43,638 nt of DNA from the NCBI GenBank assembly GCA_027031025.1, contig JALVEJ010000033.1:1-43638 (forward strand). The letters run 5' to 3'. Source of the DNA: Flavobacteriales bacterium (GTDB taxonomy: Bacteria; Bacteroidota; Bacteroidia; Flavobacteriales; Flavobacteriaceae). Below are positions 128 through 43,638 of the stretch, in pieces. Made by a program: the position numbers and the translations under genes. Every line of letters starts with the position of its first letter. Positions within the stretch are counted from its first letter, which is position 1. The notes beneath the pieces are model-generated. The model was not told the origin of the DNA. It did no database searches and saw only the letters and a program-made list of their open reading frames with translations.

Positions 128-206
128 TTGTTTTTTTGTCTAATAAATAGTTGTTTTTGATATTAAATCTCCGGTTATCACTTTATAACCCTAAAATTTA
201 TTCATT

Positions 207-1382
207 ATGAATCTAAAAACTTTTTTAAGTCTATTTTTTCTTCTTATAATGATTCAAGTACAAGGGCAAACCAAGCCGGTAACCGGAGATTGGATTTTAA
301 CCTTGATTAAAACCGCTCAAAAAACAGACCAACCTTTTATCATCAACCGGTTTGAAGCAGATAGTTCCGTAACAATATACGGCACCAAAATAGCAACTTG
401 GACACAAAAAAATAAAACTATTGATTTTAAATCCGAACGGTTTAAAATATACAACGGCAGTTTTGATATTTTAAAGCAAACATCCGGTCAGTTAGTGCTA
501 AAAGGCAGTAAAGCTACACTATATTTTAAACGGGCTTATGATCCGAAACAAAACAATCCGGTCTATCAAAACTTAATCGGCACTTGGCTGATGCACGGCA
601 CAACGCCTACTTATGTCAGGTTTGAGAATGATGGTCAGTTTATAATGCTGAATGCGGAAGAAAATACTGAAGTTATCACCAAAGGCAATTGGCTATTTCT
701 ACCTGATGATAAAGCTTTTGTGATTTTAGCTGATGTTGATATATTAAGACGAAAAAATACCATTTTGCAGATTAATAAAGACTATATGGAAGTGATGAAC
801 AACGGCATCCAATATCAACTTGAAAAACAACCGGAAGTGTTAGCCGTCAAACATTTGCAAATGAAAGAAGAAAGACTGACCGAACCCACAAAGGGGCAGC
901 CCGGCTTACCATGGACTGATGATGATATTTGGATATTTTTAGCCAAACTAAAAAACTTGCATTATAAATATTCGGTCTACCATCCGGATGTTAAAGTTTT
1001 TTCTGAAAATGATATTTCCGTTGATATAGTTCTTAATCCGGAAAAACAAAGCATCAAATTTGTTAGTTATAAAGAAATAAATGAAGAACGTGTGCCATTT
1101 ATCACCAGAACCAAAGGACCTTTAATGGAGTCGTGCAATCGCTTTTTTCCACAAAAAGATTTAGACAGCTATAGTGTTATTGATAAAAAACGTCCTTGGA
1201 AATTGGGAGACAAAACTTATGAATGTACCATTGTCAACGGTGTGATTGGTGATGAGCAATATCAATACTGGATGATAAACCGTATGCCCGGAGTTTTTGC
1301 CAAAGTTATATACGAAAAACCCAACGATGACGATAAACCGGCATATATCAAATATGAACTGGATTCTATCAAAATGAATTAA
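207..1382 (+). CDS. hypothetical secreted protein
   Basis: 391-aa ORF with an N-terminal hydrophobic signal-like segment MNLKTFLSLFFLLIMIQVQG. No family recognised by eye. Confidence 0.55.
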   Translation: MNLKTFLSLFFLLIMIQVQGQTKPVTGDWILTLIKTAQKTDQPFIINRFEADSSVTIYGTKIATWTQKNKTIDFKSERFKIYNGSFDILKQTSGQLVLKGSKATLYFKRAYDPKQNNPVYQNLIGTWLMHGTTPTYVRFENDGQFIMLNAEENTEVITKGNWLFLPDDKAFVILADVDILRRKNTILQINKDYMEVMNNGIQYQLEKQPEVLAVKHLQMKEERLTEPTKGQPGLPWTDDDIWIFLAKLKNLHYKYSVYHPDVKVFSENDISVDIVLNPEKQSIKFVSYKEINEERVPFITRTKGPLMESCNRFFPQKDLDSYSVIDKKRPWKLGDKTYECTIVNGVIGDEQYQYWMINRMPGVFAKVIYEKPNDDDKPAYIKYELDSIKMN

Positions 1383-1392
1383 ACATAAAAAA

Positions 1393-1423
1393 GGCCTACT
1401 AGGTTTTTAAAACCTAGTAGGTC
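1393..1423. repeat. palindromic element GGCCTACTAGGTTTT-T-AAAACCTAGTAGGTC (related copy at 14907..14939)
   Basis: Near-perfect 15-bp arms. It shares the core CCTnnTAGGTTTTnAAAACCTnnnAGGTC with the second copy. No T-run follows on the + strand, so it is not a canonical terminator. Confidence 0.6.
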
Positions 1424-1443
1424 TGCTATTAAAAAGAAAAGAA

Positions 1444-2121
1444 ATGAAAAACATCTTTATCTTTTTAAGCTTATTGTTTTTAGGACAAACACAAGCACAA
1501 CAAAAAATCAATCAAGATAATTTGCAAGACGTATTCAGTGCTTATATGGACTATTTCAAAGAATATGAGCCTTTGGCACCTGAGCCTGTTCGTAGAGCAA
1601 AATTTAACAAGATTGTAAACAAACAAAATCCGAATTTATCACAAGCCGATAGAGAAAAAGCTTTTAAAATAGTTGATGCTTATATACGGGCAGACAAAGG
1701 CTTGGATATGGATTATAAAATTTCTGACCAAGACAAACAACTCATTAAAGACCTGTTTGCCGATGCCGAAAAACAAAAAGAACAAGGTATACAAGCCATG
1801 ATGGGTGAAGTTTCACGTTTTCAAAATATGTCATATAGCGAATTTAAAAATTTTATCACTCAAAACGGACAATTGCCTTTAAAAGAAATAGAGATTAAGA
1901 AAGCATATAATCAAATGCACAAAAATGACGGTAAAGCAATAAGCATTACAGCCGCCGACGAACAAAAATCCAAGCAACTCAATCAAATAGAAGCCCTTGA
2001 TATTTTACGCGAACCCGGTAAGCACAGTTTTAGCGAATTTAAAGCCGCTATGAAGGTGCTAAAACCCGACATTTCCGATGAAGAAATCAAAGAATATTGG
2101 AAAAAAATCAATAAAAAATAA
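1444..2121 (+). CDS. hypothetical secreted protein (K/E/Q-rich)
   Basis: 225-aa ORF with a signal-like N-terminus MKNIFIFLSLLFLGQTQAQ. Confidence 0.55.
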   Translation: MKNIFIFLSLLFLGQTQAQQKINQDNLQDVFSAYMDYFKEYEPLAPEPVRRAKFNKIVNKQNPNLSQADREKAFKIVDAYIRADKGLDMDYKISDQDKQLIKDLFADAEKQKEQGIQAMMGEVSRFQNMSYSEFKNFITQNGQLPLKEIEIKKAYNQMHKNDGKAISITAADEQKSKQLNQIEALDILREPGKHSFSEFKAAMKVLKPDISDEEIKEYWKKINKK

Positions 2122-2193
2122 TATTATAAGTTGGGAATAAGCCGAAAAACCAACTTAAAAAAAAGGAGTAGGCATTATGTTTAATTAAAATTT

Positions 2194-2664
2194 ATGATTA
2201 TGAAAAAAGGATTGTTATTAACATTGTTTGCCTTGTTCTCAATGACAAGAATAAGTGCGCAAACCTCCCTGGGAGGGGGTCTGCTTTTAGGCTCTTACAC
2301 TACAGCAGTGGAAGTTAAAGCGGATTTTGGGGTTTCCGAACAAATTTCTATTTCCCCATCTATTGATTATTATCTGGTGGATAGTTCTTTTGGGTCAAAT
2401 GTGACCATGTATTTATTAGGTGTAGATGGTCATTATAATTTAGGTGATGCGGAATCTTTTAATTACTACCCCTTATTAGGTTTAAACTATTTTTCGGTTT
2501 CATTTAGTGGTGAAGGTTACAATTTTTCATATGGTTCGGGGGTAGGACTTACTGTTGGTGGTGGAGGCACCTATGCGCTTTCCGAAAGTTTAAAATTATA
2601 TGGAGAGCTTAAATACATTAGATCCGGTGTTAGTTTTTCAGCCGGTGTTATGTTTTCTTTATAA
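2194..2664 (+). CDS. small outer-membrane beta-barrel protein (porin/OmpW-like)
   Basis: 156 aa with a signal peptide ending ISAQ. It has alternating hydrophobic, Gly/Tyr/Ser-rich strands and a hydrophobic C-terminal strand GVMFSL. Confidence 0.6.
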   Translation: MIMKKGLLLTLFALFSMTRISAQTSLGGGLLLGSYTTAVEVKADFGVSEQISISPSIDYYLVDSSFGSNVTMYLLGVDGHYNLGDAESFNYYPLLGLNYFSVSFSGEGYNFSYGSGVGLTVGGGGTYALSESLKLYGELKYIRSGVSFSAGVMFSL

Positions 2665-2686
2665 GCTTGCAGAAAGTATAAATTTT

Positions 2687-2718
2687 AAAAGCCGCTAATT
2701 TTTATTAAAGCGGCTTTT
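2687..2718. terminator. bidirectional intrinsic terminator between convergent genes
   Basis: AAAAGCCGCT-loop-AGCGGCTTTT hairpin with an A-run before and a T-run after. It lies between the + OM-barrel gene and the - recX gene. Confidence 0.7.
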
Positions 2719-2736
2719 ATTTTTGTATAACATTTA

Positions 2737-3192
2737 TCAAGATTTTAAGCATTCTGCAAATGCCTCATATCTGTAACCCTTTTGTATCAAATACCGGGCA
2801 ATTTTTTGGTTGGTTTGAGAAGTATTAGGTCCCGGTAAGTGCTTTTTTTTCTTGGCAATTAACTCTTTAATCGTTTGTTGATAGTCGTTTTCGTCTATTT
2901 CATTTAAGGCGGATTGAATCAAATTTTGATGTATCCGATGCTGTTTTAAACCGTTGATTATCTTCTGTTTACCCCATTTGTTTTGATAAAATTTGCCTCG
3001 CACGTAAGCTCGGGCAAAACGCTCTTCATTTAAAAAACCTTCTTGAATTAAAAACAACATTATGGCATCGATAGCATCAGGAATCATCCCCATTTCACGC
3101 AGTTTTTTCTCAACTTGATAATGCGAACGCTCTTGATAAGCACAATACCGCGCCATTTTTTGTTTGACTTCATCAATGCTGTAATAAGTCAT
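2737..3192 (-). CDS. recX: RecX family regulatory protein
   Basis: 151 aa. The N-terminal ARYCAYQERSHYQVEKKL pattern and repeated helical modules are typical of RecX. There is a 4-nt ATGA overlap with folA. Confidence 0.75.
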   Translation of the reverse strand: MTYYSIDEVKQKMARYCAYQERSHYQVEKKLREMGMIPDAIDAIMLFLIQEGFLNEERFARAYVRGKFYQNKWGKQKIINGLKQHRIHQNLIQSALNEIDENDYQQTIKELIAKKKKHLPGPNTSQTNQKIARYLIQKGYRYEAFAECLKS

Positions 3193-3707
3193 TTTCGTCC
3201 AATTTTACGATAAGTTACCACTTCAAAATCATAATCATTCTTTTCTCCTTTCTTAAATTGTTGTTTATCAATTACTTCCCATTGATTCCAATCTATTTCC
3301 GGCATAAATGTGTCGGCTTTTCCTTCATAATCAACATGCGTGATAATCAATTTATCAGCCAAACCCAAACTTTGCCGGTAAATGCTAGCCCCACCAATGA
3401 CAAAAATTTCTTTGCCCGTTAAGGCAGCTTGTTTGATGGCTTGTTCTAAGTTTTTTACGGGGCAAACGTTATAAGCCGTGATATTTTCAGGTTTTGAAGT
3501 AATCACAAAATTCAATCTGTTGGGAAGCGCTTTACCAATACTTTCAAAAGTCTTTCGTCCCATTATAACCGGATGCCCTGAGGTTAATTTTTTAAAATTT
3601 TTCAAATCATCGGACAAATGCCAAGGCATCGTGCCGTTTAAACCGATTTGATTCTGACGTCCCATGGCTACAATGATGCTGATATTTTGTTTTATTGATT
3701 GATGCAT
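3189..3707 (-). CDS. folA: dihydrofolate reductase
   Basis: 172 aa. DHFR motifs seen: IVAMGRQNQIGLNGTMPWHL, VIMGRKTFESIG, FVIGGASIY. Confidence 0.9.
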   Translation of the reverse strand: MHQSIKQNISIIVAMGRQNQIGLNGTMPWHLSDDLKNFKKLTSGHPVIMGRKTFESIGKALPNRLNFVITSKPENITAYNVCPVKNLEQAIKQAALTGKEIFVIGGASIYRQSLGLADKLIITHVDYEGKADTFMPEIDWNQWEVIDKQQFKKGEKNDYDFEVVTYRKIGRK

Positions 3708-3751
3708 ACATTCTAAAATTTTGATACTATGGCAAATTTAGTGATTATTGA

Positions 3752-3853
3752 GAAAATGAGGATGTATTGTGCTTCGTATAATAAACCGTTGTTTAATGAT
3801 TGTTTTGGCTTTCATACAATATTCTGCTTTTTAATTTGAGGAAGTGAGGATTT
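3752..3853 (+). repeat. ~90-bp repeat unit of the TTTGAGGAAnTGAGGATT family (one unit plus the start of the next)
   Basis: GAAAATGAGGATGTATTGTGCTTCGTATA...CTGCTTTTTAATTTGAGGAAGTGAGGATTT matches the units at 37383..37700, 24692..24890 and (reverse) 15637..15832. Confidence 0.7.
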
Positions 3854-3862
3854 AAAAAGTAG

Positions 3863-3930
3863 TCGCTGTTCCGACCCCGACTTTCGTCGGGGGGATTGTG
3901 ACATAGGAACAAAATTGTATCGATGTGACC
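3863..3930 (+). repeat. hairpin-module repeat, composite copy
   Basis: Contains CGACCCCGAC-TTTC-GTCGGGG, which also occurs inverted at 27044..27066. This is followed by TTGT-GACATAGGA-ACAA and TGTATCGATGTGACC. Confidence 0.6.
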
Positions 3931-3977
3931 GGATTTTGATTTCAGATGTCAGATTTTCGATGTTAGATTTTCGATTT

Positions 3978-4029
3978 GGTTGCTGAGTGATTTTGGGACG
4001 TTAGGAGCAAAATTTTACCGAAGTAAACC
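3978..4029 (+). repeat. hairpin-module repeat (CTGAGTG ... ACCGAAG type)
   Basis: GGTT-GCTGAGTG-ATTTTG-GGACGTTAGGAG-CAAAAT-TTTACCGAAGTA-AACC. The outer GGTT/AACC and inner ATTTTG/CAAAAT helices can pair. Confidence 0.65.
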
Positions 4030-4373
4030 ATTAAGGCATTAAGAAGATTAAGTTTTTTTCTTTTGTGTTCTTATGTGTCTTATGTGGTTTTATTCATTTC
4101 AGATTCACTTACTGAGTGCCACTTGTTAATTTTCGATTATTCATTCTCAATTAATCCTTCCTTCTAGCTTTTTACGATTTTATCAAATATCTGCTAAATA
4201 TTTGCATATTTTCAATAAAAAAGGGCTTATTAGCTTTCTAAAATAATTTATTCGCAATTTACAAAATACTTTCAACAAAAACCTATATCTTAGCTCGTAA
4301 TTTTGTCGATTTTTTTGTTTTTTTTGGTAATAACAAGAATGCAATTAAAAATAGAAAATAAACAACCTAAGAT

Positions 4374-5972
4374 ATGAAACGAAAAATTTTGTTATGGATG
4401 ACTTTGTTCGTTCCGGCGTTAAATTTTGCTCAAGAAACAGCAGAAAAAGGAATTGATCAACGCATTGAAGAAATGTTTAAACCCGTCTCCGATTTTTGGT
4501 GGGATTTGGTGTTTTCTTCCATCAATGTTGTCGGTTACAAAATTCCTATCGTATTGATTTTATTGATATTAGGGGCAGCATATTTTACGTTTTATTTTAG
4601 ACTTCCACAATTCAAATTGTTTAAAACAGCCATAAAAGTGGTTGCCGGCAAATATGATGACATCGATCATCACGATTCTTACAAACCTGCGGATGACCCT
4701 TTAGTTGAGCCACATGAAGATATTCCCGAAACCATCAAAATAGAAGGTGCGCATCATGGTGAAGTATCACATTTTCAAGCCTTGTCAGCGGCTTTGTCCG
4801 CAACAGTAGGACTTGGAAATATTGCCGGTGTAGCAGTAGCTATTGCCATTGGTGGTCCGGGCGCTACTTTTTGGATGATTCTTGCCGGATTACTGGGCAT
4901 GGCTTCCAAATTTACCGAATGTACACTTGGCGTCAAATACCGGGATATTGGTGAAGATGGCACTGTTTACGGTGGTCCGATGTATTACCTGAAAAAAGGT
5001 TTTGCAGAAATGGGCAAAGGAACTTTCGGAAAATTTTTGGCAGTATTTTTCGCCATTATGGTCGTCGGTGGATCATTTGGCGGTGGCAATATGTTTCAAG
5101 CCAATCAAGCCGCGGCGCAGTTTAAAAAATTGTTTGATATTACACATCCCAATGCCGGTTCGTATTTTGGAATTGTTCTGGCTATCATTGTAGGAATTGT
5201 AATTATAGGTGGCATTAAACGAATTGGTAAAGTGGCGGAAAAAATTGTGCCGTTTATGGCTGTCATGTATGTGGGGGCGGCTTTACTTATTATTTTTTTA
5301 AACTTGGGTTTGGTTCCTGAGGCTTTCAAACTTATTGTTACCCAAGCCTTTACGCCGGCAGCTGGTTTAGGAGGCTTTATGGGCGTATTGATTCAAGGTT
5401 TTAGAAGGGGAACTTTCTCTAATGAAGCCGGTGTCGGGTCGGCGGCTATAGCCCACTCAGCCGTTAAAACCAAATATCCTGCCAGCGAAGGCATCGTTGC
5501 ACTTCTTGAACCTTTTATTGACACTGTTGTCATTTGCACTATGACAGCTTTGGTATTGATTATCACTAACTTAAAATATGGTTTGTTCAATTACGGCGAC
5601 GCCTCGCTAGACGGTAAAGGGGTTGAATTAACCGCAACGGCTTTTGATTCGGTTATTCCGCATTTTTCCATTATTCTGACCATTGCTGTTATTTTGTTTG
5701 CTTTTTCCACCATGTTATCTTGGTCTTATTACGGACTGCAAGGTTGGAAGTTTGTATTCGGTCGTAGCAAAACTGCCGATTTGGTCTATAAATTTTTATT
5801 CTTATTTTTCGTTTTTGTCGGTTCGTCTGTCAAATTGGGTTCCGTTCTCAATTTCTCAGACGCTATGATTTTTGCTATGGTCTTTCCCAATGTGATTGGA
5901 CTGTTCTTTTTGGCGCCCAAAGTCAAGACGGAATTGCGTAGATATCTGAAAGCTATTAAGAAGAATAAGTGA
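4374..5972 (+). CDS. alanine/glycine:cation symporter (AGCS) family amino-acid carrier
   Basis: 532 aa and multi-pass. AGCS-type segments seen: FQALSAALSATVGLGNIAGVAVAIAIGGPGA and FSNEAGVGSAAIAHSA. Confidence 0.85.
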   Translation: MKRKILLWMTLFVPALNFAQETAEKGIDQRIEEMFKPVSDFWWDLVFSSINVVGYKIPIVLILLILGAAYFTFYFRLPQFKLFKTAIKVVAGKYDDIDHHDSYKPADDPLVEPHEDIPETIKIEGAHHGEVSHFQALSAALSATVGLGNIAGVAVAIAIGGPGATFWMILAGLLGMASKFTECTLGVKYRDIGEDGTVYGGPMYYLKKGFAEMGKGTFGKFLAVFFAIMVVGGSFGGGNMFQANQAAAQFKKLFDITHPNAGSYFGIVLAIIVGIVIIGGIKRIGKVAEKIVPFMAVMYVGAALLIIFLNLGLVPEAFKLIVTQAFTPAAGLGGFMGVLIQGFRRGTFSNEAGVGSAAIAHSAVKTKYPASEGIVALLEPFIDTVVICTMTALVLIITNLKYGLFNYGDASLDGKGVELTATAFDSVIPHFSIILTIAVILFAFSTMLSWSYYGLQGWKFVFGRSKTADLVYKFLFLFFVFVGSSVKLGSVLNFSDAMIFAMVFPNVIGLFFLAPKVKTELRRYLKAIKKNK

Positions 5973-6021
5973 GTTATGTAGTGGAAAACGATATAGTAAA
6001 AAAAGTATCAAATACTAACAT

Positions 6022-6071
6022 CGGTCCCTTCGGTAAGATTTTGTTCCTACGTCACAAAATCACTCAGTGAC
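6022..6071 (-). repeat. hairpin-module repeat
   Basis: The reverse complement reads GGTC-ACTGAGTG-ATTTTGT-GACGTAGGA-ACAAAAT-CTTACCGAAGG-GACC. Confidence 0.65.
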
Positions 6072-6092
6072 CTGCCTTTGAAGCAGCGTTAA

Positions 6093-6137
6093 AGGTGGCT
6101 GAGTGTTCTGAGCGCAGCGAAGAATGTACCGAAACCA
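6093..6137 (+). repeat. hairpin-module repeat
   Basis: GGTGG-CTGAGTG-TTCT-GAGCGCAGCGA-AGAA-TGTACCGAAA-CCAC. CATCAAATAACAAATAACC follows, running up to the start codon at 6171. Confidence 0.55.
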
Positions 6138-6170
6138 CTGGTCATCAAATAACAAATAACCCATAATGAA

Positions 6171-7244
6171 ATGATACCAATACGCCTTTTGCCCTATTTT
6201 AACCGTTCACAGCGCAGAGGTATTTTGTTACTACTTAGTTTCATTTTTTTAGGTCAAATCGCCATTTGGCAATCAGGAAAGCTAAAAACATATCCAATAC
6301 AAACAAGTAATATCCCCTCGGAATTACAACAACAATATGATTCATTAAAAAAAATTGCCTTACAACAACAAAAACTAAAGATTTACCCCTTCAATCCCAA
6401 CTATTTATCCGACTACAAAGGCTATGTTTTGGGCTTAACGCCGGAACAAATCGATAAGGTAATAAATTTTAGAAAATCCGGAAAATATTTCCGGTCCAAA
6501 CAAGAATTTAAACAAGTTGCAGATTTGTCTGATTCGTTGTTTCAAATATTGGTGCCATATATCAAAATTCCGGATTTTAAATTTAAAAACAATTCCTTTC
6601 AAAACAAACATAAATCGTTGACAACCAACGATATTAATATGGCAACAGCCAAAGATTTTCAAAGCGTTTACGGGGTTGGACCGATATTGTCCAAGCGTAT
6701 TGTAAAATACCGAAATCTTATCGGTGGATTTAAAAACATGGCACAACTAAACAAAGTTTATGGTTTAGAACCGGAAGTGGTAGCCAGAATCAAGCAAAAG
6801 TTCGTCATCAAATCAATACCGCAAACCCAAAACACTATCATAGTCAAAAAACCTATCAATATTGCAACCGAAGAAGATTTTCAAAAAGTATATGGCATTG
6901 GTAAAAAATTAGCTCGACGTATTGTCAATTACCGGCAATCACTCGGCGGATTTAGCGCCAAAGAACAATTAAATGATGTCTATGGACTATCTTCCGAAGC
7001 AATTGAAGAACTTTGGAAAAATTTTAAAATTGCAAATCCGGCAAAAATTCGCTTAAAAATTAATTTGAATGATGCCAATATCAAAGAACTGGCAAAAAAT
7101 CCGTATATTTCATACCAATTGGCAAAAAAAATCGTTACGTATAGAACTTTAAACGGTGCTTTTCATACCTTTGACGAATTATTAAAAGTGCCGGATTATC
7201 CGGTTGACAAACACAAACGAATTAAGCTATATTTAAAACTATAA
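6171..7244 (+). CDS. ComEA-like protein with four tandem helix-hairpin-helix modules
   Basis: 357 aa with an N-terminal TM segment. ~65-aa modules repeat, each with the pattern Y-G-(V/I)-G-x-x-L-(S/A)-(K/R)-R-I-V-x-Y-R. Confidence 0.7.
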
Positions 7245-15533: not shown

Positions 15534-15586
15534 TTTAGTTGAAAGAGGAAAGCGAAAAAGTGCCAAGTACGAATGAATTGAGAATT

Positions 15587-15636
15587 GACACTTCGATACA
15601 TTCTTTGCTCCTACGTCGCAAAGAACACTCAGTGTC
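15587..15636 (-). repeat. hairpin-module repeat
   Basis: The reverse complement reads GACAC-TGAGTG-TTCTTTGC-GACGTAGGA-GCAAAGAA-TGTATCGAA-GTGTC. Both helices are perfect. Confidence 0.7.
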
Positions 15637-15832
15637 CTTTCCTCAATACCTCAAAATATTATGCAGGAACTTAGTATGAAATAATGAGTCGTCATCATAC
15701 AACAAAATTTTCTATGAAGTACATCAAATCCTCAATACCTCAAATTAAAAAGCAGTATTAAAGTATGAAGCAATAGGCAGTCATCAAAGAACAAAATATT
15801 CTATGAAGCACAATAAATCCTCAATTCCTCAT
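15637..15832 (-). repeat. tandem array of ~89-bp units (reverse orientation of the TTTGAGGAA family)
   Basis: TCCTCAAT recurs at 15640, 15729 and 15818 (period 89). TTCTATGAAG(T/C)ACA..AAATCCTCAAT(A/T)CCTCA occurs at 15712 and 15799. Confidence 0.7.
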
Positions 15833-18211
15833 AAAAAACTTACTTGTTACCATTGCGGATTGGAAATGTCTGAAAGCGAGACCGTATGGTTTGACGATAA
15901 GCCATTTTGTTGCAACGGCTGTAAAACGGTGTATGAAATACTGAACCAAAATCAACTTTCACAATACTATACTATTAATAAGAACCCGGGGATTAAAACC
16001 GATGAAATTGACAAAAGTATTAAGCAAAAGTATGCCTATTTAGACAATCCGGGCATCGAGAAAAAGTTGTTAGAATTTGATGACGGCAATACCAAAATCG
16101 TTAATTTTTACATTCCTAATATACATTGTAGTTCTTGTATCTGGGTTTTAGAACACCTAGACAAACTCAATTCTGCCGTAAAACATTCCGAAGTTAATTT
16201 CCCGACTAAAAACGTGCGAATTACTTATGACGGCAGTCAAATAAGCTTGCGTCAAATAGTAGAAATTCTGGCTTCGATTGCCTATCCGCCTTTGATTAGT
16301 TTGGAAGACCTAAATAAAGACAAAAAACAATCGCATAAAAAACTGCTTTATCAGTTAGCCATAGCCGGCTTTGCTTTTGGCAATATCATGTTGATGTCTT
16401 TACCGGAATATATTCAAACTGAAGGCTTTTGGATTGAAAAGTTTGCTCCTTTATTTCGTTGGTTGTCTTTAGGGCTTGCCATTCCAGTAGTATTTTATTC
16501 GGCAAGAGATTATTTTGAAAGTGCCATTAAGGGACTGCGACAAAAAATTGTCAATGTCGATATTTTAATTGCTCTGGGTATAACCGTTTTGTTTTTGCGT
16601 AGCAGTTATGAAGTTTTGACAGGAACCGGACAAGGATATTTCGACAGCTTGACCGGCTTGGTGTTTTTCTTATTGTTGGGCAAATATTTTCAACGAATTA
16701 CTTATGATTATTTGTCTTTTGAACGCGATTACAAATCGTATTTTCCTATTGCCGTAACCAAAATAGCCGACGGTAAAGAAAAAATCATCGAAATTAAAGA
16801 TTTAAAACCCGGCGACCGCTTTATTATTCGCAACGAAGAAATTATTCCCGTAGATGGTATTTTGATGAAAAATCCGGCATTGATAGACTACAGTTTTGTA
16901 ACCGGAGAATCTTTGCCGGTTGAAAAACAAGTAGGTGACCAATTATTAGCCGGAGGTAAACAAATAGGCGGTTATATAGAAGTGGAAGCCATTAACGATG
17001 TGGATAACAGCTACTTAACCAAATTGTGGAGTCGAGAAGCTTTTCAAAATCCGACTGCCGGAAATATTAAAAATTTGACCGACCAAATCAGTCAATATTT
17101 TACCTATATTATTTTAAGCATTGCCTTATTTGCCGGACTCTATTGGTGGATTACCTCCGGTTTTGGTACGGCTATTTGGGTTATAACCGCCGTATTAATT
17201 GTAGCTTGTCCGTGTGCATTGGCTCTGTCAGCGCCTTTTGCTTTCGGTAATATTTTACGGCAATTCGGCTACCGCAATTTTTATTTAAAGAACGCCCAAG
17301 TAATTGAACGTCTGTCTAAAATAGACAGTATTGTTTTTGATAAAACAGGCACATTGACTTTACAAGAAAAGTATCAAGTCCATTATGAAGGACAAAATTT
17401 GACACCGGAACAAAAATCGGTGCTTAAAACTATGGTTAAGGCTTCTAATCACCCTTTGAGCCGTTTAATTTATGATTTTTTTAAAGAAGCGCCACTTATC
17501 GAATTAGATAACGTAGAAGAAATAACCGGACAGGGCGTTGTCGCTCAAAAGGACGATAAATCCTATAAAATAGGTTCGGCATCATTTACCGGCGCATCTA
17601 CCACCGGACAAGGCACGCGAGTTTGGGTGGCTGTCAATGATCAGATAATCGGGAAATTTGTGTTTGAAGCACATTACCGCAAAGGCTTACAAAAGCTGTT
17701 TGATAGATTGCAACAAGGCTATAAACTGTATATTTTGTCAGGAGATAATGATGCCGAAAAACCGGTTTTGCAAAAATTGTTACCTGACGGCACAAGCTTT
17801 CGATTTAACCAATCGGTGCATGATAAAATGGATTTTGTTCAAAACTTGCAACAACAAGGCAAAAATGTGATGATGATTGGCGACGGACTCAATGATGCCG
17901 GTGCGCTGCAACAAGCCGATGTCGGCATTGCTATATCGGAAAACACCAATGTGTTTACCCCATCATCCGATGGTATTTTAAAAGCCGATAAACTTTTGCG
18001 ATTGCCTGATTTTCTACAAGTTGCCATACAAACCAAACGCATTATTTATCTTAGTTTTATCATTGCCTTTTTTTACAACATTATCGGTTTGGGCTTTGCG
18101 GTAACCAATCATTTAACCCCTATAGTTGCTGCTATATTGATGCCCATCAGTTCTATTTCCATTGTTATTTTCGTAACGGTTTTGACCAATTGGATTGTTC
18201 GTAAATTGTAA
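15803..18211 (+). CDS. heavy-metal (copper) translocating P-type ATPase, CcoI/FixI-like
   Basis: 802 aa. N-terminal CYHCG...FCCNGCKTVYEIL metal-binding domain and an HMA-like HCSSC. Also CPC (VACPCALAL), DKTGTLT and GDGLNDAGAL. Confidence 0.9.
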   Translation: MKHNKSSIPHKKLTCYHCGLEMSESETVWFDDKPFCCNGCKTVYEILNQNQLSQYYTINKNPGIKTDEIDKSIKQKYAYLDNPGIEKKLLEFDDGNTKIVNFYIPNIHCSSCIWVLEHLDKLNSAVKHSEVNFPTKNVRITYDGSQISLRQIVEILASIAYPPLISLEDLNKDKKQSHKKLLYQLAIAGFAFGNIMLMSLPEYIQTEGFWIEKFAPLFRWLSLGLAIPVVFYSARDYFESAIKGLRQKIVNVDILIALGITVLFLRSSYEVLTGTGQGYFDSLTGLVFFLLLGKYFQRITYDYLSFERDYKSYFPIAVTKIADGKEKIIEIKDLKPGDRFIIRNEEIIPVDGILMKNPALIDYSFVTGESLPVEKQVGDQLLAGGKQIGGYIEVEAINDVDNSYLTKLWSREAFQNPTAGNIKNLTDQISQYFTYIILSIALFAGLYWWITSGFGTAIWVITAVLIVACPCALALSAPFAFGNILRQFGYRNFYLKNAQVIERLSKIDSIVFDKTGTLTLQEKYQVHYEGQNLTPEQKSVLKTMVKASNHPLSRLIYDFFKEAPLIELDNVEEITGQGVVAQKDDKSYKIGSASFTGASTTGQGTRVWVAVNDQIIGKFVFEAHYRKGLQKLFDRLQQGYKLYILSGDNDAEKPVLQKLLPDGTSFRFNQSVHDKMDFVQNLQQQGKNVMMIGDGLNDAGALQQADVGIAISENTNVFTPSSDGILKADKLLRLPDFLQVAIQTKRIIYLSFIIAFFYNIIGLGFAVTNHLTPIVAAILMPISSISIVIFVTVLTNWIVRKL

Positions 18212-18313: not shown

Positions 18314-18496
18314 TCTATATCGATTTTAGGCTCTATGTTGTTTGGTATGGGTAATAATAAATTAGGTTCAAAATCATATAATCATGGTGATTATCTTTTT
18401 AAATAATTTCATTCCTTCGGGGTTTATAAAATAAGCCGGACGACTGTCGGAGGACATTATTATTTGAGATATTATATATTCCAAAATCGATATAGA
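18314..18496. mobile_element. MITE-like unit bounded by 14-bp terminal inverted repeats, containing copy 2 (18329..18427) of the ~99-nt element
   Basis: TCTATATCGATTTT (18314..18327) and AAAATCGATATAGA (18483..18496) are perfect inverted repeats. No transposase and no obvious target-site duplication. Confidence 0.45.
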
Positions 18497-24174: not shown

Positions 24175-24245
24175 AGGCACCTAGCAGATTCGAACTGCTG
24201 TAAACGGTTTTGCAGACCGCTGCCTAGCCACTCGGCCAAGGTGCC
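24175..24245 (-). tRNA. tRNA-Cys (anticodon GCA)
   Basis: The reverse complement is GGCACCTTGGCCGAGTGGCTAGGCAGCGGTCTGCAAAACCGTTTACAGCAGTTCGAATCTGCTAGGTGCCT. Acceptor GGCACCT/AGGTGCC, anticodon loop CT-GCA-AA, T-arm AGCAG-TTCGAAT-CTGCT, discriminator T. Confidence 0.9.
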
Positions 24246-24650: not shown

Positions 24651-24691
24651 AAGTCTTTGATTTGATTGGCAAAGTTAATAATTATTGATTA

Positions 24692-24890
24692 TTTGAGGAA
24701 TTGAGGATTTTATATGTTTTATATGACAATCAGCTTCAATGATGTTAGTTTGCTACTTCCGACCGAGCTTCTGCATACAATTTGAGGAAATGTTCTGCTT
24801 TGTTATGTTCTTTAATAGTTGTGCTTGCTTCAAACATTATTTCTGCTTCAAATTTGAGGAAATGATGAACTGAGGAATTGATGCTATTTA
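24692..24890 (+). repeat. tandem array of TTTGAGGAA-family units (about 3 units)
   Basis: TTTGAGGA occurs at 24692, 24781 and 24853. Units share GCTTCA and CTGCTT blocks with 37383..37700. Confidence 0.65.
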
Positions 24891-25634: not shown

Positions 25635-26981
25635 CTACTCTACCCCTTCAAACCAATGATGTTTTATCAACAAAATTAAGCCGGCAATAGCGGTTAAAAT
25701 ATTGGTGATAGGATAACTAATCCAAATACCAAATTGTTTCAATCCGGTATGGTAGCCTAGATAATACGCCAGAGGAAAACGCAAAAGCCAAACCGAAAAT
25801 AATGCCAGTATCATGGAAATTTTGGTTTTACCGGCGCCGCGAAAAGCGCCCATTAAGACGATAAGAATCCCCAAAAATCCGAAAGAAACCGACAAAGATT
25901 TTATGAATATGGCACTTTCTTTGATCGTTGCCGTATCACCGGGAATAAAAAACATTGCTACTTCTTCGGCAAAAATAAATAACAATAAACCGATAAAAGT
26001 CAAAGTTCCAAAAGCAATTTTTAAACTAAGTTGCAAGGTTTTTTTAACACGGTCATATTGTTTGGCACCGATATTTTGCCCAACCAAAGTGGAAGTTGCC
26101 ATCCCTAAACCGAAGGCAGGAATAATGATAAAACTCAAAATCCGGCTACCGATACCATAACTAGCTAAAACCATAGTTCCGAAATGGGTCACCAACAAAA
26201 CCATCATAAAAATCCCCAAAGCACGACTCACTTGCTCTACGGATACCGGAAAACCTAATTTAAACAACTCTTTAATCAGTGAAAAATCAGGGTGATAATC
26301 GCTTAACCGGATTTTAATACCTTGTTTGCCTCTAAACAAAATAAATAAGCCGATGACTGCCGATAAAATTTGTGTTCCGACTGTAGCAATTGCAGCTCCT
26401 TTAACACCTGCTGCCGGAACAACATCTTTCCAACCGAAAATAAACAAAGGGTCTAAGGCTAAGTTCAACAAAACCGTCGATAAAACAATGTAAAAGGGTA
26501 ATTTGACATTCCCGATACTGCGCATGAGGGATTGAAAAGTCAGATATGTAAACAAAGGCGGCAATCCCAAAAAAGTGATTTTCAAATAAGCAACAGCATC
26601 ATCGTAAACCGCCGGTTCTACCTTCATCATGCCAACTAAAAGCGGTGCTATCAGATAGCCCAACAATGCCAATATCAACGAAATACTCAAAACCGAAAAA
26701 AAAGTCTGAGTCGAAATATGTGCTACGGCACCGGCATCTTTGGCGCCATAGCGTTTGGCAACCAAAATAGATCCGGCAATAGCCATGCCCGCCCCTAATG
26801 ACACGATGATAAAAACAATGGGAAAAGCCAATGAAACCGCAGCCACCGCTTCGCTCCCCAATCGCCCGACCCAAAACGTATCGGTTAAGTTGTATGCCGT
26901 CTGTAAAATATTAGTCAAAATCAACGGGATAGATAACTTTATCAATGCCCGTAATATGGGACCTTCCGTTAGTTTATTCAT
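25635..26981 (-). CDS. MATE family efflux transporter
   Basis: 448 aa with 12 predicted TM segments. The N-terminal PILRALIKLSIPLILTNILQTAYNLTDTFWVGRLG is typical of NorM/DinF-type MATE proteins. Confidence 0.85.
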   Translation of the reverse strand: MNKLTEGPILRALIKLSIPLILTNILQTAYNLTDTFWVGRLGSEAVAAVSLAFPIVFIIVSLGAGMAIAGSILVAKRYGAKDAGAVAHISTQTFFSVLSISLILALLGYLIAPLLVGMMKVEPAVYDDAVAYLKITFLGLPPLFTYLTFQSLMRSIGNVKLPFYIVLSTVLLNLALDPLFIFGWKDVVPAAGVKGAAIATVGTQILSAVIGLFILFRGKQGIKIRLSDYHPDFSLIKELFKLGFPVSVEQVSRALGIFMMVLLVTHFGTMVLASYGIGSRILSFIIIPAFGLGMATSTLVGQNIGAKQYDRVKKTLQLSLKIAFGTLTFIGLLLFIFAEEVAMFFIPGDTATIKESAIFIKSLSVSFGFLGILIVLMGAFRGAGKTKISMILALFSVWLLRFPLAYYLGYHTGLKQFGIWISYPITNILTAIAGLILLIKHHWFEGVE

Positions 26982-26982
26982 T

Positions 26983-27022
26983 GGTTAATGGGTTATGTGG
27001 TTATTTGGTTATTTGGTTGTTT
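26983..27022 (-). repeat. five tandem octamers (AAATAACC-like on the gene strand) ending 1 nt before the MATE start codon
   Basis: The + strand reads GGTTAATG GGTTATGT GGTTATTT GGTTATTT GGTTGTTT. Confidence 0.7.
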
Positions 27023-27080
27023 GATGTCGGGGCTTCGATATATCCCCCCGACGAAAGTCGGGGTCGTGCCACTCAGCCAC
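27023..27080 (-). repeat. hairpin-module repeat
   Basis: The reverse complement reads GTGGC-TGAGTG-GCA-CGACCCCGAC-TTTC-GTCGGGG-GGATATATCGAAG-CC... The inner hairpin is identical to that at 3873..3895. Confidence 0.6.
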
Positions 27081-27192
27081 TTTTGATTCTACTTCATAGA
27101 AAGGGACCTTCATTCCGGTTACTCTTACTGTTTGATTTCTATTTCAAGAGATATTCGTCATTAAAAACAGCCACTTCTGATTCTGCATTGCA

Positions 27193-27237
27193 GGTCACTG
27201 AGTGTCCCGATGCTAATCGGGATGTATCGAAGTGACC
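27193..27237 (+). repeat. hairpin-module repeat (cleanest copy)
   Basis: GGTCAC-TGAGTG-TCCCGAT-GCTA-ATCGGGA-TGTATCGAA-GTGACC, with a perfect 6-bp outer and a perfect 7-bp inner helix. Confidence 0.75.
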
Positions 27238-27247
27238 GGTGTTAAAT

Positions 27248-37375: not shown

Positions 37376-37382
37376 ATTGTTT

Positions 37383-37700
37383 TTTTGAGGAATTGAGGAT
37401 TTTCCCTGCTTCATAGTTTATTTGTCACTTTTGATGATTGCTTATAGCTTCATACTATATTACTGCTTCTAATTTGAGGAAGTGAGGATTTTTTCGCTGC
37501 TTCATAGAAGGCTTTGCGCTTTGATGATTGCTTGTTGCTTCAAACAATGTTTCTGCTTACGATTTGAGGAATTGATGAAATGATGAAATGATGAGTTGAG
37601 GAAATGAGGATTATAACTGCTTCATAAATTGTTATGGTCTTTGATATTTTTTCACTACTTCTGATGTTACTTCTGCTTACAATTTGAGGAAGTGAGGAAT
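37383..37700 (+). repeat. tandem array, about 3.5 units of the ~90-bp TTTGAGGAAnTGAGGATT family
   Basis: TTTGAGGA occurs at 37383, 37472, 37562 and 37683 (periods 89, 90, 121; the long unit has an internal GATGAAAT duplication). Shared blocks: CTGCTTCATA, TTTGATGATTGCTT, GCTTCA, CTGCTT. Confidence 0.8.
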
Positions 37701-37709
37701 TGAAAAGTA

Positions 37710-37763
37710 GGTCGCTGAGTGTTCCGTCACGACAAAAGACGTAACGGAATGTGCCGAAGCGCC
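37710..37763 (+). repeat. hairpin-module repeat
   Basis: GG(T)CGC-TGAGTG-TTCCGTCACG-ACAAAAGA-CGTAACGGAA-TGTGCCGAA-GCGCC. Confidence 0.65.
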
Positions 37764-37920
37764 GGTTTTCAATTGCAAATTTTATTAAAAACAACTTTTT
37801 ACTCTCCATTACTTCTAAAATCGGCGTTCGTCACTTCGACAGGCTCAACACAAGTGTTCTATATTCGTCATTCAAGTTTTCAATATTTTGTTGTGTTTTT
37901 TAGTATAAAGCAGCCGGTTA

Positions 37921-37951: not shown

Positions 37952-40543
37952 GTGGTAGCGGGCGAACGCCTGCATACCGATAAAGACATGGGACACGACG
38001 GCTATAATGGTGACCGTGTAGCCGGTGATGCTTTCGGATTTTCTTTATCCTATTTTTCAAATACTACAGGACAACCCTACGACGACTATAAAGCCCGTAA
38101 AGCCGATGAAAGTATTAATTTAGGACTAACTCATAATAGTACTATTTACAATTACAACAGAAACCTGTTTAACGGCAATATTAAGACTATGGTAACCGCT
38201 TTGCGCGATACTAAAAGTAAGCCTATTGATATTGCGCTTAACAACTATACTTACGACCAGCTTAACCGTATTCGAAATATGGAGTCGCATATATTAGAAC
38301 CATCTACTTTGGCTCCGCAATACAATGACTTGATACAAACCTCGTACAATTATGACCGTAATGGAAACTTAAAAAAGTTAAATCGTAATGCCATTATTGG
38401 TGGTACTGTGCAACATATGGACGCACTGACTTATCATTATAATATGACAGGCTCCCCTTCAAGGTTAGAAAACAACCAATTGCTATGGGTTGATGATGCT
38501 GTACCTGCCACCGTAACCAATGTAGATGTTGATGATCAAGATAAAGGCAACTATACTTACGATGCCATAGGACAACTTACCAAAGACGAAGCCGAAGGAC
38601 TAAAAAGCATAGAATGGACGGTTACCGGCAAAGTCAAGAAAATAATTAAAGTAAAAAATGAGGTTACAGAAGAAATCAGCTTTACCTATGATCCTTTAGG
38701 CAATAGGTTAAGCAAGAGCGTTAAAAATAAAAAAGGAACGACTACGACTTACTATATCCGTGATGCGCAAGGCAATCCGTTAGCGGTCTATCAATGCACA
38801 AAAGAAAACAATGAAATAGCCTCATTCTATCTGCAAGAAAATGATATATACGGCAGCAAACGACTGGGTATCCATCATTATGATTCTAAAACCGGCAATA
38901 TGCTGGTCTCTCGTCCTGCTACTGATGTATATGCCAACACCATAGGCGACAAGCAATACGAACTGAGTAACCATTTGGGCAATGTGCTCAGTGTGATTAC
39001 CGACCAAAAATTACTTAACATCCAACGCGGCACACCGGTATTTGAAGCCCGTTTTGATGAGGATGATGAGATAATGCCGTTTAGCCCAACTCCGGACATA
39101 ACCAAAGTAGCCAACACCGGACATGTTTTATTAGTAGAAAACACACCGGGCATACCGGAACAAGGCGCTTATACAACCATAAGTTTACAATCCGGCAAAA
39201 AATATTTGTTAAACTTTGACATGCCGCTTAACGAACTCGAAGGCACGTTTGAAGTAATCATTTTGGATAATACTTCGAATGATGCAGTTATAAAAGAGCT
39301 TATAGAACAAAAACAAACCGGACACCTAAGTTACACGTTTACAGCCCCAACCACCGGTGGTTACACCCTATCATTCTTAACCTACGAAAAAGCCCAAGGC
39401 ACATTTAGCCTCGACAACATAGAAATTTTAGACATAACCGGATTAAACCCCGCCGAAGTAGCCGCACATTCGCAAGAAATGCCTATCTTTGTACCAAGCG
39501 TTCTTTCATTTAGTGATTATTATCCTTTTGGTATGTTGATGCCGGGTAGGCATGCAAGTAGTAGTTTTTATAGGTATGGATTTGGTGGGCAAGAGAAAGA
39601 TGATGAGATTAAGGGAAAAGGTAATCATATTGCATATGCCGAAAGAGGATATGACCCAAGAGTAGCAAGATGGATAAGCGTTGATGTCTATGCACCGGCA
39701 TTAGCCTCATTTTCACCTTATAATTATGCCTTAAATAATCCCATTTGTCTTGTTGATGAAGAAGGAAATTGGCCTAAACCTTCAAGTTTATTGCCGGATG
39801 ACACTTCACCTTTGATAAAAGGCTTGGTTGATGGAGTATGGGAAGGCTTAACAGGTTCAGTAGGATTTGCTTGGGATTATGCAACTGATTCAAAATTCAG
39901 GGAACAAGTAAACGCTTCTTTCAAAGCATTAATAAATGATCCGTTAGGAACACTTCAAGGTATTGTAGATGAATATGCAGATTTAATAAACAGGACTTTA
40001 TCAGGAGATGCTTCTGATGAAGATATTTATAGAATTGGTGAGGAAATAGGTGAAAATGGCATTGGTTTGCTACTTGGTGGTTCAACTTTGGTTGCCAAAG
40101 GTGTCAAAAAATTTAGCAAACTTAAAATTGCGAAAGGTAGGTTTGTTAAAAAAATTATTAAAGAAACAGAAAAAATGCCTGCTTGGGTTAAAGCAGGTAA
40201 AGACTTTGAGATTGATTTAATGAATAAGTTTGTTAATAAGGGTTATAAGGTAGTTACACAAGTCTCATTTGCAGCAATAGATCCAAAAACTGGAAAAAAA
40301 ATTAGAGCAGTTGTTGATGGTATTGTTATAAAAAATGGAAAAATCTTAGGTTTCGTTGAAGCAAAATTAACCAAAGGAAAAACCCAATTAACAAGAAATC
40401 AAAAAATTGTTTATGAAGCTTTAAGGAAAGGAGAAGCGGTAGCAGTTGGCAGTAAAGCAAAAAAAGTAGAAGAAATAACAAAAGGTGCTATTAAAGTTGG
40501 AGAAAAAGTCAAAGCAAATGTACATATTTTATATAAACAATAA
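37952..40543 (+). CDS. Rhs/YD-repeat protein fragment (N-terminally truncated) with RHS core end and C-terminal toxin domain
   Basis: 863 aa from a GTG; the frame opens only at 37928, after TAG at 37925..37927. YD repeats: YNYDRNGNL, YTYDAIGQLT, FTYDPLGNRL. Core end: DYYPFGMLMPGR, YGFGGQEKDDE, RGYDPRVARWISVD, SPYNYALNNPICLVDEEGNWP. A 255-aa variable tip follows. Confidence 0.8.
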   Translation: MVAGERLHTDKDMGHDGYNGDRVAGDAFGFSLSYFSNTTGQPYDDYKARKADESINLGLTHNSTIYNYNRNLFNGNIKTMVTALRDTKSKPIDIALNNYTYDQLNRIRNMESHILEPSTLAPQYNDLIQTSYNYDRNGNLKKLNRNAIIGGTVQHMDALTYHYNMTGSPSRLENNQLLWVDDAVPATVTNVDVDDQDKGNYTYDAIGQLTKDEAEGLKSIEWTVTGKVKKIIKVKNEVTEEISFTYDPLGNRLSKSVKNKKGTTTTYYIRDAQGNPLAVYQCTKENNEIASFYLQENDIYGSKRLGIHHYDSKTGNMLVSRPATDVYANTIGDKQYELSNHLGNVLSVITDQKLLNIQRGTPVFEARFDEDDEIMPFSPTPDITKVANTGHVLLVENTPGIPEQGAYTTISLQSGKKYLLNFDMPLNELEGTFEVIILDNTSNDAVIKELIEQKQTGHLSYTFTAPTTGGYTLSFLTYEKAQGTFSLDNIEILDITGLNPAEVAAHSQEMPIFVPSVLSFSDYYPFGMLMPGRHASSSFYRYGFGGQEKDDEIKGKGNHIAYAERGYDPRVARWISVDVYAPALASFSPYNYALNNPICLVDEEGNWPKPSSLLPDDTSPLIKGLVDGVWEGLTGSVGFAWDYATDSKFREQVNASFKALINDPLGTLQGIVDEYADLINRTLSGDASDEDIYRIGEEIGENGIGLLLGGSTLVAKGVKKFSKLKIAKGRFVKKIIKETEKMPAWVKAGKDFEIDLMNKFVNKGYKVVTQVSFAAIDPKTGKKIRAVVDGIVIKNGKILGFVEAKLTKGKTQLTRNQKIVYEALRKGEAVAVGSKAKKVEEITKGAIKVGEKVKANVHILYKQ
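39211..39357 (+). repeat. rhs-internal segment duplicated at 43492..43638
   Basis: 39241..39357 is identical to 43522..43638 (117/117). 39230..39240 has 2 mismatches. Homology decays upstream to about 39211. Confidence 0.9.
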
Positions 40544-43490: not shown

Positions 43491-43638
43491 AAAACTTTGC
43501 AATAACATCCAACGAACTAAAAGGCACGTTTGAAGTAATCATTTTGGATAATACTTCGAATGATGCAGTTATAAAAGAGCTTATAGAACAAAAACAAACC
43601 GGACACCTAAGTTACACGTTTACAGCCCCAACCACCGG
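43491..43638 (+). pseudogene. start-less orphan rhs fragment (partial, continues beyond the window)
   Basis: The frame opens after TAA at 43488..43490 and reads NFAITSNELKGTFEVIILDNTSNDAVIKELIEQKQTGHLSYTFTAPTTG. This matches residues of the 37952 gene encoded at 39214..39357. No ATG/GTG/TTG start lies in frame. Confidence 0.6.

Follow-up and report, generated by a model that had tools for sequence, protein, structure and literature searches.

The closest described counterparts of the element analyzed here, a two-helix module repeated between the genes of a 43.6-kb stretch (36% GC) of the Flavobacteriales contig JALVEJ010000033.1, are the hairpin repeats of the Ssn system; "the window" refers throughout to this whole stretch. 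The Ssn family is composed of single-domain GIY-YIG proteins of ~94 amino acids (aa; CDD cd10448), whose genes are flanked by NTS/SRM hairpin repeats that are also found in hundreds of intergenic copies, with NTS including the Neisseria dRS3 repeat (Chenal et al. 2025, PMC11893778). In single-stranded DNA (ssDNA), SsnA binds the hairpin of one strand and cuts upstream of it, and it is inactive on double-stranded DNA, on RNA, and on the reverse strand; the orientation of the SRM is set by conserved unpaired flanks, the loop is dispensable, and the stem sequence matters for the N. meningitidis enzyme (PMC11893778). The authors of that study pointed out the likeness of the Ssn system to insertion sequence (IS) elements and to RAYT/REP/BIME systems, and Bacteroidota are absent from the main text of their paper. 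CGTC-tagged REPs combine an 8–9-bp stem and a 4–5-nt loop with CGTC at the head and CCA at the tail; they have been reported from Bacteroidetes (G. forsetii), with no transposase known for them (Di Nocera et al. 2013, PMC3733652). Our analyses make it probable that the window modules belong, as orphan copies, to a REP/BIME-like family of ssDNA hairpin repeats partnered by an Ssn-like GIY-YIG nuclease, and the best-supported description of the module is a novel form within known repeat/nuclease logic and not a new class of regulatory RNA.

Seven full modules are matched in the window by a covariance model (R1) trained on 23 module copies from the window and from other genomes. In a whole-window search with filters off these matches score 28–64 bits (E 2e-5 to 4e-15), and the top unrelated match reaches 9.6 bits. 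The copies share one order of parts, namely an outer helix of 4–6 bp, CTGAGTG, an inner hairpin, (T/C)(G/T)T-A-Y-CGAA(G/A), and the outer complement, and the profile of the module flank is A-GGTCN-CTGAGTG. Across the family the unpaired bases hardly vary, with GA in the 5′ strand and A-Y-C-G-A in the 3′ strand, in keeping with the conserved unpaired strands described in an earlier, sequence-only reading of the window. The same holds for GTG facing (N)(N)T, a stretch that pairs solely as G.T wobbles. The module is thereby built around an asymmetric internal loop, GA against A-Y-C-G-A, made of a tandem G.A and a 3-nt bulge and followed by three G.T wobbles (GTG/TGT). The bare TGAGTG hexamer is not enriched in the window (13 observed vs 9.3 expected); the signal of the module lies in its complete architecture.

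The sequence-only reading proposed compensatory change in the helices from the window copies, and this proposal is borne out on far larger independent sets. In the genome alignment, 85% of cells are paired, compared with 69% after shuffling and 34–56% in slid controls (32–56% over the genome and metagenome sets together), and double changes are present at 12 of 14 pairs. An independent metagenome alignment has 92.4% of cells paired and 73.4% after shuffling. The covariation score is 0.378 for the genome set (0.129 shuffled) and 0.484 for the metagenome set (0.160 shuffled), values that were attained by none of 500 shuffles. Pairs 9–136 (AU 58, GC 40, CG 34) and 19–123 (UA 67, CG 44) exemplify the compensatory pairs of the metagenome set. 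The apical loop is structured in many copies: the pattern GA-N-(3–4 nt, mostly GTA, GAA, or GCA)-N-GA is found in 79 of 274 distinct copies, and its two N positions are CG in 53, GC in 19, and AT in 3 and fail to pair in just two copies. Loop GACGTAGGA, a frequent one, is a mini-helix of its own: a second tandem G.A closes a 1-bp stem with a GNA triloop.

Pairing in the inner helix is strongly asymmetric between the strands, with 670 G.T pairs and 18 A.C mismatches, the bulk of the G.T pairs coming from the GTG/TGT positions, and in 255 of the 274 copies folding is more favorable on the sense strand. Because of this one-strand asymmetry a duplex palindrome or cruciform is unlikely; it points to selection acting on one strand, be it ssDNA or RNA, and hence to a single-stranded hairpin. 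The alternative offered by the sequence-only reading, a structured RNA or a protein-recognized cruciform, is retained as a selected single-strand structure with likely protein recognition, and its cruciform part is unlikely. That reading could assign the copies to no known family, and likewise Rfam 15 matched no module in the whole window at the gathering score or at E up to 10, nor with lax filters over positions 5990–6160. In the window, the Rfam gathering score is exceeded only by a tRNA gene at 24175–24245(−) (61 bits).

The module is a family well beyond the window. A scan of species-representative genomes with the pattern CTGAGTG..GACGTAGGA..YCGAAG found true copies in Zunongwangia, Mesonia, Marixanthomonas, Lutibacter, and Flavobacterium and in many Flavobacteriales metagenome-assembled genomes (MAGs), as well as in MAGs labeled Sphingobacteriales, Bacteroidota, Neomarinimicrobiota, and Cloacimonadota; three matches in Proteobacteria seem fortuitous. 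In metagenomes, a loop-independent pattern picked out at least 118 stretches. Three rounds of the covariance model over the collected loci yielded 67, 156, and 86 copies, and the family comprises at least 303 copies in 120 loci from genomes and metagenomes of Flavobacteriales and other members of the FCB group, with 8 of 303 inside called open reading frames (ORFs). Viral contigs gave no module match, and a phage origin of the modules was dropped on that account. One of the loci, L019, resembles a near relative of the window, yet it has only the repeats in common with it.

The arrangement of the copies is that of a dispersed DNA repeat. Of the copies that lie between co-directional genes, 74 are in sense and 52 in antisense orientation (~40% antisense to the flanking genes), so that the occurrence in both orientations noted for the window extends to the family. 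Counted by spacer between such genes, those with sense copies only (30) outnumber those with antisense copies only (13), and 25 hold both. Neighboring copies form 110 inverted pairs, 79 with their 5′ ends facing and 31 with their 3′ ends facing, compared with 25 direct pairs. The metagenome arrays of L070 alternate strictly in orientation at ~57-nt spacing and contain two module subtypes; alternating arrays are also seen in L046/L052, L055, and L156, and this is the layout described for BIMEs (PMC2817692). Same-strand tandem arrays are present elsewhere, with a period of 98 in L008 and of ~237 in Zunongwangia. Copy number varies at orthologous sites, as one spacer of an operon encoding 698-, 426-, and 461-aa proteins, orthologous between Zunongwangia and Mesonia, has zero, two, or four copies. 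That operon is the only recurrence in an all-against-all BLAST comparison of the genome-locus ORFs, which revealed no gene-class association and no recurrent neighbor of the modules besides a GIY-YIG protein; no transposase is found among the window proteins. The inverted dimers, the alternating arrays, the ~40% antisense copies, and this variation in copy number are the behavior of a REP/BIME-like dispersed DNA repeat, an outcome that the sequence-only reading had itself named as counting against its proposal.

The GIY-YIG protein provides the link to a nuclease. A 99-aa ORF inside the L070 module arrays matches PF01541 (E 2.4e-15), and homologous ORFs are present in about a dozen further module loci; the flanked ORFs, all in related loci outside the window, encode 94–104 aa with PF01541 as the sole domain. 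Among ~15 homologous ORFs in module loci, 11–12 have an antisense module 3–35 nt past the stop codon; a sense module ending 24–35 nt before the start codon is seen in 5. The association was also recovered in the reverse direction. From 4,232 homologue clusters, six genes were chosen solely on protein similarity, and five of them are module-flanked, four on both sides (sense upstream and antisense downstream). The genes of Aequorivita (L150), Marixanthomonas (L151), and Sinomicrobium (L152) have a sense module upstream, an antisense module past the stop codon, and more copies beyond, and a gene from a JGI metagenome (L156; also L157 and L159) has the same two modules followed by a ~2-kb array. 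The Mesohalobacter gene (L149) has modules upstream only, and the gene of a Calditrichia MAG (L162), on a contig that stops 19 nt past it, has none. Across proteins of 38–90% identity and across phyla the geometry is the same, with the antisense module 1–35 nt past the stop codon and often a sense module ~15–50 nt before the start codon. The gene is multi-copy in some genomes, such as L131, where positions 137–4694 contain three intact or split GIY-YIG genes (3–4 copies in a 7-kb stretch of array), each with the same antisense module behind it. Contigs of ~1 kb carry many of the nuclease genes.

NCBIfam contains no family for this nuclease, and its closest relatives in the PDB are the UPF0213 proteins 1zg2 and 1ywl. 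Its best relatives in a plasmid database are from Methylobacterium (45–47% identity) and Sphingomonas, and alphaproteobacterial homologues of 42–47% identity are encoded in Sphingomonas parapaucimobilis (L147) and Methylobacterium bullatum (L148). In both loci inverted repeats with CTGAG...TCGAAG flank the nuclease (L147, 460–545 and 880–905; L148, 520–590 and 900–1010), and one of these repeats has the loop GGAGCGTAGCGGA. Model R1 does not match the flanking repeats of the alphaproteobacterial loci L147, L148, and L153–L155. The common CTGAG...TCGAAG signature, noted by inspection in two loci, is a suggestive parallel.

Set beside Ssn, the system shares a single-domain GIY-YIG protein of similar size, hairpin repeats on both sides of its gene, repeats scattered in many clustered intergenic copies (7 in the window and at least 303 in the 120 loci), and an orientation given by conserved unpaired flanks with a loop whose identity is dispensable. 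Strand-specific recognition of a single strand has been demonstrated for Ssn and is indicated here, indirectly, by strand-asymmetric pairing. The repeats themselves differ: the SRM is CGTC, one 8–9-bp hairpin, and CYRG, whereas the module has two or three helices, the GA/AYCGA loop, and three G.T wobbles. The module resembles the REP, BIME, REPIN, and RAYT systems in being a short, extragenic, imperfect palindrome of high copy number with subfamily diversity within one genome, in forming inverted dimers and regular alternating arrays of two subtypes, and in having one nuclease gene between inverted copies. It differs in lacking a 5′ GTAG tag (GTAG is present only inside one loop variant), in the large conserved internal loop of its hairpin, and in a partner that is a GIY-YIG protein and not an HUH Y1 transposase. 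With CGTC-tagged REPs it has in common the dispersed palindromic repeats and frequent inverted dimers, and it differs from them in tag position and size (PMC3733652); both the GTAG and the CGTC class were rejected as the identity of the module because of their architecture. Imperfect subterminal hairpins with conserved unpaired bases, read in ssDNA by a small nuclease, are also characteristic of IS200/IS605 elements, although their end hairpins lie on the same strand and their enzyme is of the HUH type, unlike the inverted module copies and the GIY-YIG protein. The layout with the nuclease gene between inverted modules parallels that of Ssn between its NTS/SRM hairpins, and likewise that of RAYT between REPs.

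On the sense DNA strand each copy folds into the outer helix, the asymmetric loop, three G.T wobbles, a variable inner helix, and often an apical G.A mini-stem. We posit that this folded ssDNA would serve a small single-domain GIY-YIG nuclease, encoded elsewhere in such genomes, as its recognition site. Binding to the conserved unpaired bases and to the geometry of the helices would take place when the DNA is single-stranded, as in replication, DNA uptake, or transcription bubbles, and the nuclease would then nick close to the module. If copies survive and multiply only with the fold intact, covarying helices around fixed loops are the expected outcome, and arrays would expand through duplication of inverted dimers. 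The family, its structure, the asymmetry of its strands, its array behavior, and its association with the gene are observed, whereas binding, cleavage, mobilization, and any effect on the neighboring genes of the window are inferred.

Several observations weigh against this explanation. The window has no GIY-YIG gene, and the partner is deduced from other genomes. None of the 303 modules fits the SRM consensus HGTCWYN(0-2)YYVSBRHN(0-5)WNVSBRGN(0-2)RNCYNB, tested on both strands, which has one match in 855 kb of loci. The stem sequence matters to SsnA, whereas the stems of the module vary freely. The nuclease resembles Ssn in size, domain, and flanks, but its nearest solved relatives are UPF0213 proteins, and it is at most a candidate member of the Ssn clade (cd10448). 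The moderate excess of sense copies could, moreover, reflect a role at the RNA level, although a replication-strand effect would give an equal bias: the lagging-strand template, which would be transiently single-stranded, would carry the coding-strand sequence of co-oriented genes.

A broader proposal, which we offer as a tentative and rather doubtful one, is that the module and the GIY-YIG gene form a hitherto undescribed REPtron-like system of the FCB group, in which the nuclease reads, and possibly mobilizes, a tandem-G.A, kink-turn-like ssDNA hairpin with no sequence relation to NTS/SRM, with the CTGA...GAAG signature perhaps reaching the alphaproteobacterial homologues. If true, site-specific ssDNA nucleases would have a second specificity class of distinct structure, and this might be the first repeat family in prokaryotes to be propagated by a GIY-YIG enzyme. 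The explanation by orphan repeats of an Ssn-like nuclease would by itself extend the pairing of Ssn-type nuclease and hairpin repeat to a new phylum-level group with a clearly different recognition structure (tandem G.A and bulge). It would also give a concrete identity to the repeat-stuffed intergenic regions of marine Flavobacteria, which break assemblies. Should the nuclease cut the module, it would provide a new programmable ssDNA specificity and a case in which to study the reading of nucleic-acid shape by a protein of ~95 aa. In annotation of the window, the copies are best marked as repeat elements and not as riboswitch-like regulators of adjacent genes.

The module might instead act as RNA, as a protein-dependent kink-turn hairpin in mRNAs and untranslated regions that affects mRNA stability, processing, or the translation of neighboring genes. 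We judge this to be unlikely. Similar to kink-turn RNAs (box C/D, Kt-7, riboswitch k-turns), the module combines a 3-nt bulge and tandem G.A/A.G with covarying helices on both sides, and its non-bulged strand contains CUGA, as in box D. In this assignment the outer helix and C-U/A-G form the non-canonical stem, G.A/A.G the tandem sheared pairs, A-Y-C the 3-nt bulge, and GUG/UGU with the inner helix the canonical stem; the non-bulged strand reads [helix]-C-U-G-A-[GUG + helix] and the bulged strand [helix + NNU]-A-Y-C-G-A-A-G-[helix]. With its 3-nt bulge and the tandem G:A and A:G behind it, the internal loop conforms to the standard definition of a k-turn (PMC8191799), and the flanking pairs covary as expected (4b:4n, CG 124 and UA 16; 3b:3n, UA 143 and CG 2). 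Under the published rules, however, a Watson–Crick 3b:3n pair predicts poor folding in metal ions alone, and the G.U wobble at −1b:−1n lies outside those rules (PMC8191799). The acceptance of G.U wobbles on the sense strand only, the excess of sense-only over antisense-only spacers between co-directional genes (30 vs 13), and the two window copies in sense orientation 34–42 nt upstream of start codons are consistent with a role in RNA, whereas the lack of any Rfam match is not in its favor.

The position of the copies relative to transcription is more difficult to reconcile with RNA. Copies occur on both strands, ~40% of them antisense to the flanking genes, and arrays alternate strictly; one orthologous spacer holds from zero to four copies; and there is neither an association with a gene class nor a recurrent neighboring protein except the GIY-YIG nuclease. 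In particular, the module past the GIY-YIG stop codon is consistently antisense to the nuclease mRNA, and a dedicated structured RNA cannot account for this conserved copy. Tandem sheared G.A pairs and GNA triloops are classic stable features of ssDNA as well and so fit ssDNA equally. Because of the antisense copies, the antisense copy past the nuclease gene, and these ssDNA-compatible features, we keep the kink-turn as a minority rival. Two other RNA motifs were rejected by inspection: the hammerhead (CUGAUGA...GAAA), given that the module has no three-way junction, a different core, and no Rfam match, and the sarcin–ricin/loop E motif (AGUA/GAA), given that GAA does not adjoin the inner stem.

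The association with the nuclease could also be read in reverse, and we assign this a similarly low probability. A free-standing, homing-type GIY-YIG gene would have inserted into existing arrays, the modules would have spread by another transposase or by replication slippage, and they would not be the genome-wide working substrates of the nuclease. Homing endonucleases of the free-standing GIY-YIG type are well known, long arrays usually surround the gene, and L131 has its 3–4 gene copies in 7 kb of array. The fixed geometry of gene and module across phyla, on the other hand, resembles the ends of an element and not random insertion into arrays, and no other transposase recurs beside the modules. 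The Ssn relatives, moreover, use their own flanking repeats as substrates (PMC11893778). Finally, chance palindromes or ordinary Rho-independent terminators are a negligible prospect, as the sequence-only reading already held for random palindromes: the window is AT-rich and contains 343 short inverted-repeat pairs, but the modules score 28–64 bits against noise of at most 9.6, have hundreds of homologous, covarying copies in other genomes, and are not followed by a T-run.

We return to the copies in the window, which are probably orphan repeats of an Ssn-like nuclease. All seven are intergenic, as reported earlier, and lie between long ORFs of housekeeping types (DHFR, Na/Ala symporter, ComEA-like, P-type ATPase, MatE, DnaE, Usp, and RHS-repeat). 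The helices and loops quoted in the sequence-only reading are correct when checked against the window sequence. Its count of at least nine copies is reduced to seven full modules, with the coordinates and strands it gave, and one partial copy; the additional copy near 4107 is doubtful and undetected by the model.

The first full module, at 3978..4029(+) (model match 3974–4032, 44.6 bits), has a two-helix fold with the layout GGTTG-CTGAGTG-ATTTTG-GGACGTTAGGAG-CAAAAT-TTTACCGAAG-TAAACC. The next two form an inverted pair with facing 5′ ends and a 21-nt spacer. The module at 6022..6071(−) (6019–6076, 62.5 bits) has loop GACGTAGGA and a two-helix fold and is 89–91% identical to copies in the Flavobacteriales MAG loci L004 and L009. 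Its partner at 6093..6137(+) (6090–6143, 46.9 bits) lies 34 nt upstream of the ATG at 6171, and it has a C.A mismatch adjoining the tandem G.A that is compensated to U-A in relatives (pair 10–79, CG53/UA7). The module at 15587..15636(−) (15582–15641, 64.4 bits; fold z-score −3.9) also has loop GACGTAGGA; it lies at the end of a tandem array of ~89-nt units (15640–15838) and has a near-identical copy in L019.

A second inverted pair, again with facing 5′ ends, has a spacer of 112 nt. It is composed of a variant module at 27023..27080(−) (27024–27085, 28.1 bits), with the inner hairpin CCCCGAC-TTTC-GTCGGGG, and a full module at 27193..27237(+) (27189–27241, 50.0 bits; fold −25 kcal/mol, z-score −4.75), with the layout GGTCA-CTGAGTG-TCCCGAT-GCTA-ATCGGGA-TGTATCGAAG-TGACC. 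The variant lies 42 nt upstream of the MatE start codon at 26981, and thus both positions upstream of start codons that had been pointed out from the sequence, 6171 and 26981, are confirmed. The last module, at 37710..37763(+) (37706–37768, 39.8 bits), has a two-tier inner hairpin and lies at the 3′ end of a ~90-nt tandem array (37376–37705); a related copy is found in L019 at 1822–1884.

The partial copy at 3863..3930(+) is a degenerate composite that matches the model at 3892–3923 (17 bits, model positions 14–44). Its 5′ strand is broken by a different hairpin, CCCCGACTTTCGTCGGGG, and the inner hairpin (loop GACATAGGA) and TGTATCGATG are kept. A 25-nt block, CGA-CCCCGAC-TTTC-GTCGGGG-GGAT, is 100% identical and inverted between 3872–3896 and 27042–27066, and at both sites it displaces or breaks the inner hairpin of a module. 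The doubtful fragment at 4105..4145(+), CTGAGTG...TTTCGAT, has no helices and was found by a loose regular expression only; the covariance model gave no match to it in the window at E up to 10.

Other repeats are found beside the modules. A second family consists of ~89–90-nt tandem units at 3748–3855(+), 15640–15838(−), 24680–24890(+), and 37376–37705(+), and its arrays abut a two-helix module at three places. The unit reads CTGCTTCATAG...TTTGATGATTGC...TTCTGCTT..AATTTGAGGAAGTGAGGATT, with a possible covarying stem (TTGTT/AACAA vs TATAG/CTATA), and it is common to the Flavobacteriales MAG loci L004, L009, and L019 (73–84% identity), the genes of which are otherwise unrelated. Two 8-nt microsatellites of 5.4 repeats are present, TTGGTTAT at 26981–27023, between the MatE start codon and the module, and TGATGAAA at 37565–37607, inside the 90-nt array. 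A 51-nt intergenic stretch at 4055–4105 is 96% identical to positions 2701–2751 of the Flavobacteriales MAG locus L021 and forms a mosaic piece adjoining the modules. Zunongwangia and Mesonia spacers (L020 4640–4720, L007 7220–7300, and L013 1580–1650) contain CGTC-headed hairpins, such as CGTCATCCTGAACTTGTTTCAGGATCTCATCC, together with other hairpin repeats, so several repeat families coexist in mosaic spacers.

Two further repeats lie apart from the modules. An inverted pair of ~100 nt (29–128 and 18328–18427, 87–88% identity) contains the hairpin AAACCCCGAAGGGGT and is another dispersed intergenic element. A 147-nt direct repeat (39211–39357 and 43492–43638, 93% identity) has its first copy inside an 863-aa RHS-repeat gene and its second at the end of the window, a placement suggestive of gene paralogues.

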